Below are positions 1,953 to 14,624 of a stretch of DNA of 64,000 nucleotides, in pieces; positions within the stretch are counted from its first letter, which is position 1; every line of letters starts with the position of its first letter. Location: positions 18,131 to 82,130 of the forward strand of contig JAEOTS010000009.1 of assembly GCA_016839745.1 (NCBI GenBank), written 5' to 3'. Under the pieces are notes generated by a model. That model was not told where the DNA came from. It ran no database searches and saw nothing but the letters and a program-made list of their open reading frames with translations. The stretch comes from Promethearchaeota archaeon (lineage in GTDB: Archaea > Asgardarchaeota > Lokiarchaeia > Sigyniarchaeales > SOKP01). A program made the translations under genes and the position numbers.

Positions 1953-3260
1953 ATGGGAATGAATGCAAAAAAAGAAGATGATTTTATTTCTCCTACTTTA
2001 GTGAACTACTTAAGACAAGAGATACCAATAGAAGAAATTAGGGATTATTCCTCATCAGGAAGAATAGAGAGTATTGATTTTGTAAAAGGTTTTGCAATAC
2101 TGTTCATAATACTGGCCCATTATGCTGCTGTTTGGTTAAATGAAGAGTGGTATTTCGTGTATGGATTAGCATTTATGTTTTTAGATATTTTAGGCCCTTC
2201 ACTTTTTATATTTCTCTCTGCTTTAAGCGTAGTATTTACAGTAAAGAAAAAAGCAGGAAAAATGCCCGAGAAACTCATTAGAAATCGAGTTTTTTCAAGA
2301 GGACTAATTATTGTGGTTATTGGCGTGTTTATAAACTTAACAGAGCACTATTATCCCTTTCCCTTAAATCTTTGGGGCTGGAATATTTTGTTTTTTATGG
2401 GATTTTCCCAAATTTTTTCGTATTACGCATTAAAAATAACTAAGATGCCTCGTGCGATTATTGGAATATTCATAATTTTCTTAACTCCCACGATTAGAGC
2501 TTTTCTCTATACTGAAAAAGACACAAATTTGATAGTGGGATTTTTTCACTTTATCATCACTTCTGCCAATCCGTCTGTCACGCTTTTACCTTGGCTTTCG
2601 ATATGTTTTATTTCGACAATTTTCGGAGAATATCTTTATGAGGCGATGAGTGATAAGTCAGAGAATAGATTTAGAGGATTATTTCGCATCTTCTTTACTT
2701 GGGGTATTTCCCTTATTGTTGCTGGAGTTATGATGGGGTTTACTTTACAAACGGTAGTAACTATGAACATGTCAGAATATGGACACTTATCTCTATTGGG
2801 AATTGCCAACGATCAGAGTTTTTTTTACCTGCCAGGCATGCCCGATTTTTTGATTAGAGGAACTGCCTCCAATATGTTATATAATTTAGGAGCTGCTCTC
2901 ACAATTATAGGTATCGCTTTTTATTTCATCGATTTAAAAGGAAAATCGAATAATATTGTAAGAATGTTTAGATACTATGGAAAAATCTCTTTGAGTCTGT
3001 TTATGATACATTTTATCTTCATGCCCCTATATGTTAAGCAATTAAATATTTTTTTATTTCCAGTTATTTATATTGCGAATGTTGGCTTGTTAGGATTTAT
3101 GATGTATATATGGATTGAATATGGAAAAGGAATAGGATCACCTGAATGGTTAATGGTTCAAATTGGTAGGATTGGACAAAAAACCGGAGAAAATATTAAA
3201 AAAACTTCGAAATTAGCAGTTGAAAAAACTAAAAAATCAATTGAAAAAAGAAGGACCTAA
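1953..3260 (+). CDS. Multi-pass membrane acyltransferase-like protein (HGSNAT catalytic/DUF1624-like)
   Basis: N-terminal RIESIDFVKGFAILFIILAH and about 11 hydrophobic segments; LLPWL motif. Confidence 0.7.
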   Translation: MGMNAKKEDDFISPTLVNYLRQEIPIEEIRDYSSSGRIESIDFVKGFAILFIILAHYAAVWLNEEWYFVYGLAFMFLDILGPSLFIFLSALSVVFTVKKKAGKMPEKLIRNRVFSRGLIIVVIGVFINLTEHYYPFPLNLWGWNILFFMGFSQIFSYYALKITKMPRAIIGIFIIFLTPTIRAFLYTEKDTNLIVGFFHFIITSANPSVTLLPWLSICFISTIFGEYLYEAMSDKSENRFRGLFRIFFTWGISLIVAGVMMGFTLQTVVTMNMSEYGHLSLLGIANDQSFFYLPGMPDFLIRGTASNMLYNLGAALTIIGIAFYFIDLKGKSNNIVRMFRYYGKISLSLFMIHFIFMPLYVKQLNIFLFPVIYIANVGLLGFMMYIWIEYGKGIGSPEWLMVQIGRIGQKTGENIKKTSKLAVEKTKKSIEKRRT

Positions 3261-12302: not shown

Positions 12303-13616
12303 ATGAATTATTCTGATTGGTTAAAGAGAAAAGGATTAGAATATAGAGAGGATATATTGTATTTTGCAAAAAAAAAAACCTTAGATATCGCTAAAAGGTT
12401 TGGTACACCCCTTTATGTAATTAACGAACAAATGATACGTGAGCGCTACAGAAGCTTGAAAAATGTTTTAAATCACGAATACAAAAATAACCAAATTAAC
12501 TATGCTGTTAAAGCAAATTCAAATCTGTCTGTTCTAAAAATTCTGAATTCAGAAGGGGCTTCCTTCGATTGTACTTCTATGGGAGAAGTGTACATTTGTT
12601 TAAAAGCGGGTATATCTTCAGAAAAGATGATATATACGGGAAATATGTTCACAGATGCTGACTTTAAATTCGCAGTAAAAAATAATGTTTTCGTCAATTT
12701 AGACAGTCTAAGCCAATTGAACCGTTTAGTACGAATTCATGAGAGCCTTGGTAAGGAAAAAAAAGCTATCTCTTTTAGGATAAATCCAGAATTTGGGGCA
12801 GGACACCATAAACACACAATTACAGCAGGAAAAGACATAAAATTTGGTATACTCGAACAACAAGCAATAGAAGCGTACAGAAAAGCTAAAGAAGCTGGTT
12901 TTGAAAAATTTGGTATTCATCAGCATATTGGGTCTGGAGTAATAAACGCTCTCGATTTTGGAAAACCAGCAGAAAAATTTATTAGTATTATCAAGAAAAT
13001 AATAAAAACACTTGATATTAAGTTTGAATTCATCGATTTTGGTGGGGGTTTGGGAATTCCTTATCGACCAGAAGAAGAACCATTAGATTTAGAGAGTTAT
13101 AAAAATTTAGTAATAAAACCGTTTTTGAATTTGTTGGAGGCAGAAGAGTTAGGCGAACCCATTTTTAAAATCGAACCAGGACGTTTCCTAAGCGCGGAGT
13201 CTACAATTTTATTAACGCAGATAAATACAATAAAAGATAATGGATTTAAGCTTTTTGCTGGAGTTAACGCTGGTTTTAATACGCTAATTCGTCCAACATT
13301 ATACAATAGTTATCATCATATAATTCCTTGTGATTTAAAAGGAAAAAAGCGGGAATTTGAATATGATATTGTAGGACCTATTTGTGAGTCTGGAGACATT
13401 CTTGGAGAAGGTAGGAAATTAAATGAGTTGAAAGAGGAAGATTATCTTGCTATTCTTGATACTGGAGCATACGGTTTTGTTATGAGTAGCCCTTATAATT
13501 CAAGACCTAGACCTGCTGAAGTATTAATTAATAATAATTCTGTGTATGAGATTAGAAGGGCAGAAACTTTCGAGGATCTATTAAACGGTCAAAAAGTTCC
13601 AGAACATTTAAAATAA
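12303..13616 (+). CDS. lysA: Diaminopimelate decarboxylase
   Basis: YAVKAN (PLP lysine), HIGS, DFGGGLG, EPGR, GPICESGD, GAYG and YNSRPRP motifs. Confidence 0.96.
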   Translation: MNYSDWLKRKGLEYREDILYFAKKKTLDIAKRFGTPLYVINEQMIRERYRSLKNVLNHEYKNNQINYAVKANSNLSVLKILNSEGASFDCTSMGEVYICLKAGISSEKMIYTGNMFTDADFKFAVKNNVFVNLDSLSQLNRLVRIHESLGKEKKAISFRINPEFGAGHHKHTITAGKDIKFGILEQQAIEAYRKAKEAGFEKFGIHQHIGSGVINALDFGKPAEKFISIIKKIIKTLDIKFEFIDFGGGLGIPYRPEEEPLDLESYKNLVIKPFLNLLEAEELGEPIFKIEPGRFLSAESTILLTQINTIKDNGFKLFAGVNAGFNTLIRPTLYNSYHHIIPCDLKGKKREFEYDIVGPICESGDILGEGRKLNELKEEDYLAILDTGAYGFVMSSPYNSRPRPAEVLINNNSVYEIRRAETFEDLLNGQKVPEHLK

Positions 13617-13673
13617 GAAAAAAGAATTAAATCCTTTATAACGTTAATTATCACGAGATAGAATTATAAATAT

Positions 13674-13774
13674 GGGCTGCGTAAGGATTGGATACCCTTT
13701 ATGCCGTTTCGATGAAGAGTTGGCGTAATGAAATCTATATTACTTAGATTAATGATAATACCGATCTGCTCTGA
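13674..13774 (+). ncRNA. Candidate box C/D-like guide sRNA with a structured 5' leader
   Basis: C-like TCGATGA 13709-15, 12 nt guide, D' ATGA 13728-31, hairpin AATCTA/TAGATT, C' ATGATAA 13752-58, 12 nt guide, D CTGA 13771-74. TATA-like elements at 13635 and 13664. Confidence 0.55.
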
Positions 13775-13898
13775 TTTATTTATAATTTTATCTCTCTTAT
13801 TAAAAAGATAAGTATAATTTTTAAATGAAAGAAAATCTTCTTAAAACCTAAGAACTTTTTATTTTATCATCACAGAAATTATAATTAAAGTTTTATCT

Positions 13899-14624
13899 AT
13901 GAATGTTGCTATTTTATCTGATATTCATGGAAATATTCACGCATTAAACGCCGTAATATCTGACATCAAATCTCTCAACATCTCAGAAATTGTATTTTTA
14001 GGAGATTTGGTTATAAATGGCCCTTCACCATCGGAAGTATTTCAAGAATTGCGAAATTTAAAACCAATTTGTTGGATAAAAGGAAATACTGACACCTGGT
14101 TTGCTGAAATAAATGACGAATGGTCACCAACTACGGAACAAGAAGAAAAATTATATAATCTTTTTATCTTTGCTCGAAATTATTTAACCAAAGAATCGAT
14201 AGAATTTTTATTAAAACGCCCTGAGAAATGTGTTTTTGAAACTGCTGGAGTAGCTATCTTAGCATTACACGGATCGCCTAGATCTATTTCAGAAGGTATA
14301 GGAAAAAATATTACGCAGAATGAACTTAAAGGAATTTTCTCAGATATAGAAGAATCAGTTATAGTGTCAGGACATTCACATGTACCTTTTATAGGAAAGG
14401 TTGCGAATAAATTTATTTTTAATGTAGGAAGTATTGGAATGTCCTTAGACGATGATAATAGAGCGTCTTACGGTATAATAAAAATTAAAAATGAGATCCC
14501 TGAATGTTCGATCCGAAGAATAGCATATCCTATAAGTAAAACTCTATCAATAGCACAGAATCGGGATTTTCCTGATTTGAAAAATTATAAAAAAAAGTTA
14601 AATGAAGCGAGAAGTTCACCGTAA
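13899..14624 (+). CDS. Calcineurin-like metallophosphoesterase (YfcE/MJ0936-like)
   Basis: SDIHGN, LGDLV, KGNTD, HGSP, GHSH and NVGS motifs. Confidence 0.9.
   Translation: MNVAILSDIHGNIHALNAVISDIKSLNISEIVFLGDLVINGPSPSEVFQELRNLKPICWIKGNTDTWFAEINDEWSPTTEQEEKLYNLFIFARNYLTKESIEFLLKRPEKCVFETAGVAILALHGSPRSISEGIGKNITQNELKGIFSDIEESVIVSGHSHVPFIGKVANKFIFNVGSIGMSLDDDNRASYGIIKIKNEIPECSIRRIAYPISKTLSIAQNRDFPDLKNYKKKLNEARSSP

Follow-up and report, generated by a model that had tools for sequence, protein, structure and literature searches.

Archaeal box C/D guide RNAs are recognised by boxes C and D that can form a kink-turn, an internal D'/C' pair that makes a second L7Ae site, spacers of about 12 nt on both sides, and a guide complementary to rRNA or tRNA with its target opposite the fifth base upstream of D or D'. 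They are usually about 50-70 nt long, with the boxes at the ends and a short terminal stem. In Pyrobaculum calidifontis, sR32 is such an RNA, of about 50 nt; both its spacers have 12 nt, D' and C' are joined by a 3-nt loop (K-loop), and extra domains are absent. Its D guide, UACUGACCUGCG, is followed by the D box, and its register and target are unchanged compared with the RNA described here (PMC4644070, supplement). According to the literature, a Gm in helix 34 of the small-subunit rRNA is conserved in yeast (1428, guided by snR56), human (1490), plants and algae. The eukaryotic RNAs snR56 and SNORD25 (U25) are 70-90 nt long and are encoded in introns or clusters. No description of box C/D guide RNAs from Asgard archaea was found in our search of Rfam and the literature.

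Here we describe a locus in a Promethearchaeota genome. The window is the whole 64,000-nt stretch of contig JAEOTS010000009.1 that was analysed. Judged from comparison of homologous sequences, positions 13655-13794 on its + strand are a genuine, conserved and previously unannotated RNA gene of about 140 bases. Our best explanation of the whole, which we hold to be probable, is a box C/D-type guide RNA on the + strand that would direct methylation of 16S helix 34.

A conserved RNA gene downstream of lysA

The gene and its parts are as follows.

12303-13616, upstream ORF: PLP-dependent Orn/DAP/Arg-type decarboxylase, consistent with lysA
13655-13794, + strand: RNA gene, from P0 arm to P0 arm, directly 3' of lysA
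13655-13672, + strand: 5' arm of helix P0 (GAGATAGAATTATAAATA), 18 bp with 13777-13794
13674-13686, + strand: 5' strand of hairpin P1, a variable outer stem and a conserved UAAGG; covaries with 13697-13709
13687-13696, + strand: P1 loop ATTGGATACC, 10 nt, with a GGATACC core of 7 nt
13697-13709, + strand: 3' strand of P1, ending 2 nt before box C
13712-13718, + strand: box C, ATGAAGA (U5 of the consensus RUGAUGA is A here); ATGA invariant, then A/U-G-A/U in 50 of 50 homologues
13719-13727, + strand: D' spacer (GTTGGCGTA), 9 nt
13728-13731, + strand: box D', ATGA, with GA invariant
13732-13750, + strand: hairpin P3, AATCTA/TAGATT (arms 13732-13737 and 13745-13750), canonical stem of the C'/D' kink-turn
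13752-13758, + strand: box C', ATGATAA, with ATGA invariant in 50 homologues; 3-nt bulge at 13751-13753
13759-13770, + strand: D guide TACCGATCTGCT, 12 nt; family consensus TACTGATCTGCT
13766, + strand: base of the guide that faces the predicted target; fifth upstream of box D
13771-13774, + strand: box D, CTGA, kept in 49 of 50 homologues
13777-13794, + strand: 3' arm of P0 (TATTTATAATTTTATCTC), partner of 13655-13672
13899-14624, downstream ORF: metallophosphoesterase

The same genus was sampled with 24 genomes, and BLAST detected the element in 21 of them, at 76-88% identity. Of the 126 family genomes sampled, 100 were matched over the full length of the RNA by a covariance model made from the same-genus copies (E 1e-17 to 1e-32); they cover at least 11 genera. 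Weak matches to the model, limited to the core, were obtained in two sister families (f2 and f3), and a pattern search of complete f2 genomes (G032, G038) found no homologue. When the core pattern was run against 185,579 species genomes, one per species, matches came only from Promethearchaeota/Promethearchaeia (Lokiarchaeia-type Asgard) MAGs. A few matching records carry other labels, having been deposited as MAGs of Hodarchaeota, Hermodarchaeota, Thorarchaeota and Odinarchaeota and as one 'Nanopelagicaceae bacterium' (for example, loci L175 (DATKTW010000048.1), L098, L120, L141 and L147); these labels are probably wrong.

A position after lysA on the same strand is usual across genera and persists where LysA identity has fallen to 52-60%, which argues for vertical inheritance and not for a mobile element. 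The gap between lysA and the RNA is short (38-60 nt). Unlike lysA upstream, the gene downstream of the RNA varies among genomes. The Rfam search proposed in the initial annotation, done with release 15 on both strands, returned sub-threshold noise only; the best overlap was TtnuCD3, with 19.8 bits (E = 8) where the family's gathering threshold is 70.

Such an arrangement of boxes is rare: scanning the whole 3.5-Mb genome with a regular expression gave 2-3 matches, and the reversed-sequence control gave 0. The same genome encodes fibrillarin and Nop5, in adjacent genes, and two L7Ae-family genes. It is 89% complete, and simple box C/D scans of it gave almost no other candidates, the two found (C47:3644 and C157:10391) being doubtful. 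Guide RNAs may be very few in this lineage, or their boxes may be atypical.

Several genomes also contain extra, partial or divergent copies of the RNA 0.4-4 kb from the main copy. They lie at L012:1924-2058 (G021), L015 about 3010-3150 (G017), L092:104-238 (G060), L048:1128-1246 and L090:101-202 (both G059), L091:99-206 (G054), L086 (G068) and L093 (G112). The D guide is retained in most of them, and the GGAUACC loop is also retained in those of G059 (L048:1128-1246), G054, G068 and G112. The copies in G021, G017 and G060 and the L090 copy of G059 are truncated and have no P1. In the main copy of G059 the D box is mutated (CTAA).

Structure of the RNA

Over the whole structure, pairing extends to 94.4% of the alignment cells, and in 28 of 43 pairs both sides have changed, a level that 0 of 500 shuffles reached. 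Single-sequence folds of eight relatives recovered P0, P1 and P3. Cells with G.U far outnumber those with A.C (37 versus 3 in P0, 103 versus 7 in P1), so the helices form in RNA of the + strand, as the initial annotation had read from its G-U pairs. An RNA from the minus strand was rejected on this ground and on its weak fold (z -0.8).

The initial annotation described a box C/D-like RNA on the + strand, with every quoted motif string correctly placed. The RNA proved to be real and conserved, with a kink-turn at C'/D', but the C box had been set at TCGATGA (13709-15, + strand), followed by a 12-nt spacer AGAGTTGGCGTA (13716-27, + strand); the conserved box is AUGAAGA. Among 50 homologues the base before ATGAAGA varies (G 25, A 17, U 4, C 4), and the invariant register is ATGAAGA at 13712-18, so the D' spacer has 9 nt. 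Of the two 12-nt spacers claimed, only the D spacer has that length.

AUGAAGA agrees with the RUGAUGA consensus at six of seven positions. Stem II is formed by 13716-18 with 13770-72 (A-U, G-C, A-U), and its last pair is changed to U-A in 5 sequences. From the invariant GA dinucleotides we infer the sheared G-A pairs of C/D. At the other end of the core, 94% of P3 cells are paired, with changes on both sides in four of its six pairs, and by its motifs the combination of D' AUGA, P3, the 3-nt bulge and C' AUGAUAA is a true kink-turn. The D' spacer differs between genera, with 23 variants in 50 sequences, GUUGGCR being the commonest; it has 9-10 nt in the f2 and f3 homologues.

P1 is a 13-bp hairpin in which 10 of 13 pairs show both-sided changes. 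The window's own P1 is weak, having five G.U pairs and one mismatch. Its end lies 4 nt (3 nt in some sequences) from the sheared G-A of AUGAAGA, and P1 thus stands where a kink-turn has its canonical stem. Other classes of RNA were also considered. As a test for H/ACA RNA, P1 showed a continuous 13-bp stem with no pseudouridylation pocket, and no ACA follows it. A tRNA or intron-bearing tRNA, which the D-arm-like AAGG...CCUU could recall and whose intron may hold a C/D guide in the manner of Haloferax tRNA-Trp, was rejected because ARAGORN called no tRNA and neither a T-arm nor a 3' acceptor is present after box D.

In P0, pairing is kept in 97.6% of the cells among 50 homologues, and both-sided changes occur in 12 of the 15 pairs modelled; in divergent genera, runs of A-U are swapped for G-C pairs. 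The f2 and f3 homologues seem to consist of P1 and the C/D core only. The 16-nt motif of the P0 arms occurs at only these two places in the whole genome. A generic promoter motif was therefore ruled out, and so were the ends of a mobile element, since the locus is also syntenic after lysA. The 'TATA' that the initial annotation placed at 13664 sits within the transcribed, base-paired arm, and promoter calls in AT-rich DNA of this kind are unreliable. A bulge-helix-bulge for the splicing endonuclease was sought at the inner end of P0, and the motif is absent there. Outside the window, the same genome (G000) encodes a protein of 124-142 aa made of the RNase III catalytic domain only (contig C191:65234-65605; locus L197:1501-1872, - strand). 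It scores 61 bits with PF14622 and 44 bits with PF00636 and resembles bacterial Mini-III. Such a protein could process long perfect helices like P0.

The D guide and its predicted target in 16S helix 34

Targets were sought in the 16S and 23S of a same-genus genome, as no rRNA was found in the window's own assembly. The core of the D guide, ACUGAUCUGC, is almost invariant and is complementary to GCAGGUCAGU in 16S helix 34. With the 16S sequence 5'-GGCAGGUCAGUA-3' (GGCAGGTCAGTA), the consensus guide UACUGAUCUGCU makes 10 Watson-Crick and 2 G.U pairs; all 12 positions pair for the consensus and 11 of 12 for the window. Guide positions 2-11 are near-invariant, both in the f2 and f3 matches and across at least 11 genera, and coincide with the block that pairs, with free variation at positions 1 and 12. 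The helix 34 site is identical in all the 16S recovered (G008, G015, G065, G032 and G039). Among 1000 shuffles, 12 found pairing as good as that of the consensus guide anywhere in 16S and 23S (p ~0.012), and for the invariant 10-mer the number was 47; p values of 0.01-0.05 are only moderate, and several registers of the guide had been tried.

Rare guide substitutions, U to C at position 6 and CU to UC at positions 1-2, retain pairing with G. At position 9, the window and two other genomes have C and one has A, a mismatch when read against the 16S of relatives, the own 16S of these four genomes (the window's genome, G110, G104 and G076) being unassembled.

By the supplementary E. coli alignment of Dennis et al. 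(2015; PMC4644070), the target nucleotide is 1197 in the 3' strand of helix 34. This strand is part of the decoding centre. The predicted 2'-O-methyl would most likely be on the first G of CAGGUC in CAGGUCAGUA of the 16S, equivalent to E. coli 1197. By our count on yeast and human 18S and the U25 guide, this nucleotide appears to be the eukaryotic Gm1428/Gm1490, again the first G of CAGGUC.

The initial annotation had offered the 23S peptidyl-transferase sequence as a target for this guide. No match to it was found in the same-genus 23S, and 16S helix 34 was the best target found instead. The D' spacer gave no significant rRNA target (252 of 1000 shuffles were as good). Its pairing with 16S helix 18 (CCAGCUCU) was rejected as not significant; it would also have to extend into box C, and several genera have lost it. 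No convincing tRNA target was found for either spacer or for the P1 loop. A genome-wide search for complements of the guide gave too many G.U-tolerant matches to be informative.

The apex of P1 (window 13682-13701; UAAGG AUUGGAUAC CCUUUA) resembles the '790 loop' of 16S helix 24 (CCGG AUUAGAUAC CCGG; 16S of G008, L028:2232-2252). The likeness is one of sequence and of loop size, with 12 of 13 bases in the window. A role of the apex as a mimic of the 790 loop (GGAUUGGAUACCC versus GGAUUAGAUACCC) would be a lead only and is within chance expectation. Genome G015 has a second 16S-23S pair on contig C263:2265-6910 (L025), whose archaeal-model scores are far below those of the C222 pair and whose 16S has a different 790-loop context; this contig is possibly a contaminant.

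Alternative readings and comparison with known systems

The mechanism proposed for a guide RNA follows from the known action of box C/D particles. L7Ae would bind both kink-turns, and Nop5-fibrillarin would assemble there. The 12-nt D spacer would pair with the 3' strand of helix 34 in nascent 16S, and fibrillarin would then act on the G that faces the guide's fifth base, counted upstream from box D (E. coli 1197), methylating its 2'-OH. The D' spacer, at 9 nt, probably guides no methylation. The part of canonical stem in the C/D kink-turn, normally played by a terminal stem, would fall to P1, whose invariant loop would presumably bind some partner, and P0 would close a three-way junction in the window's family. 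More speculatively, P0 may be a processing stem that frees the RNA from a lysA read-through transcript, a suggestion drawn from the short gap after lysA (38-60 nt) and the encoded RNase III-domain-only protein. Several features do not sit easily with a guide RNA: the 9-nt D' spacer, when 12 nt on both sides is optimal for archaeal complexes; a size two to three times the usual; a box C far from the 5' end; and the position-9 mismatches in four genomes against the 16S of relatives.

In the initial annotation, the leader was proposed to pair with the two guides and so to act as a built-in self-target or as an inhibitor of the RNA itself. This pairing is the minimum free energy fold in this one genome only, on the + strand of the window, where P1 is weak, both without P0 (-25.2 kcal/mol, with z -1.8 and 9 equally good shuffles among 200) and with P0 included (-41.0). 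In 21 same-genus homologues, however, only 63% of the cells of these pairs are paired, which equals the shuffles, and two of the three helices are at 50-54%. The nearest relatives, G012 and G061, fold as P0, P1 and P3, and covariation links the leader strands to each other as P1, inside the covarying P0. RNAalifold proposed a weaker self-pairing, in which the D' spacer joins the D guide; 94.7% of its cells are paired, but its energy is no better than that of shuffles (29-56% as good), and changes in G058 and G069 break it while the 16S pairing stays. A self-target or auto-inhibitory leader is therefore very hard to credit. An element of the lysA 3'-UTR, for example a kink-turn by which L7Ae or another protein would control mRNA stability or termination with no target in trans, draws on the fixed place directly downstream of lysA, on the same strand and across genera, with a gap of only 38-60 nt. 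Binding of L7Ae to mRNAs is reported in archaea by one study (PMC5539422). We consider this quite unlikely, as the f2 and f3 homologues and the extra copies have no established tie to lysA, two kink-turns and a 12-nt spacer are the layout of a guide RNA, and a 10-nt block that is identical across genera and complementary to 16S would be left without a role.

The loop of P1 bears on another explanation, in which the RNA, like U14, U3 or snR190, would be a non-methylating chaperone or processing RNA: C/D proteins would assemble on it, the D spacer would hold the 3' strand of helix 34, the P1 loop would hold GGUAUCC, and folding of the head domain would be timed. The GGATACC core of the loop is kept in 48 of 50 aligned homologues, and the f3 match keeps GGAUACC and the f2 match GAUACC, though the stems there are wholly different. 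Its exact complement, GGUAUCC, lies in the helix 35/36 region of 16S about 120 nt upstream of the D-guide target, adjoining the 5' strand of helix 34, and is present in the 16S of G008, G015, G065, G032 and G039. Dennis et al. proposed chaperone roles for archaeal sRNAs with guide sites that lie far apart in sequence and near each other in structure; cases in which accessory pairing promotes methylation are on record for yeast and human, and the 9-nt D' spacer deviates from a methylation-competent layout. On the other side, complements of a given 7-mer are expected about 0.3 times by chance in 4.9 kb, and a second exact match is present in 23S. No covariation was found between the loop and 16S; in G039, an f2 homologue, the loop is UGAUACC and the 16S GGUAUCC is unchanged. 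An antisense action of the loop on 16S GGUAUCC is thus a possible lead only, its match length being within chance expectation. With its 12 nt, the D spacer fits the geometry of a methylation guide exactly, and a chaperone role is compatible with methylation and does not exclude it. We regard a chaperone or processing RNA that does not methylate as an unlikely alternative to the guide RNA.

A composite of these ideas can be drawn as one joint claim. An Asgard C/D RNA with eukaryote-like features would carry one guide for the eukaryote-universal helix 34 Gm, P0 would be cut from the 3' region of the mRNA, the loop would dock on 16S GGUAUCC, and the particle would both methylate and chaperone the folding of the small-subunit head. 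Release at P0 would perhaps be by the RNase III-domain protein, as Rnt1 frees yeast snoRNAs. Taken together, all of this is improbable. The partner of the invariant GGAUACC loop is a defined puzzle.

Compared with the usual archaeal guide RNA, the Asgard RNA has boxes C and D able to form a kink-turn (AUGAAGA, CUGA and stem II), a second, internal L7Ae site in D' (NNGA) and C' (AUGAnnn) with invariant GA, and a D guide complementary to rRNA with its target opposite the fifth base. It departs in its spacers, 12 nt at D and 9 nt at D', and in its size of about 101 nt from P1 to box D, or 140 nt with P0, a 36-nt hairpin preceding box C. With sR32 of P. calidifontis (PMC4644070) it shares the order C, spacer, D', C', 12-nt spacer, D, the GA-based kink-turn motifs, the register of the guide and the predicted target nucleotide in helix 34. 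It differs from sR32 in the 36-nt hairpin before box C, the 18-bp terminal helix, the 9-nt D' spacer and the stem-closed C'/D'.

Yeast snR56 and human SNORD25 (U25) likewise target helix 34 of the small-subunit rRNA, and the Asgard RNA recalls eukaryotic snoRNAs in its single functional guide, degenerate second spacer, D'-C' stem and external stem. Beyond the guide, it has no demonstrable sequence homology to these RNAs. For the junction of P0, P1 and the C/D core, the nearest likeness is the k-junction, reportedly a kink-turn extended to a three-way junction (Wang, Daldrop, Huang and Lilley, 2014). By way of a short bulge, P1 continues into the G-A pairs, and the third helix, P0, interrupts the strand that faces the bulge; the window's linkers are 1 and 2 nt and the bulge is 3-4 nt, and the likeness is one of topology only.

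This is apparently the clearest box C/D RNA in a genome where simple box scans give very few, and the predicted methylation in the decoding centre would, by our count, be one common to all eukaryotes. The RNA offers a testable handle on the rRNA modification machinery in the archaeal relatives of eukaryotes. Its guide and the kind of target are known from other systems, and what is new is the layout of about 140 nt, in which a hairpin-capped C/D kink-turn lies inside a long terminal helix.
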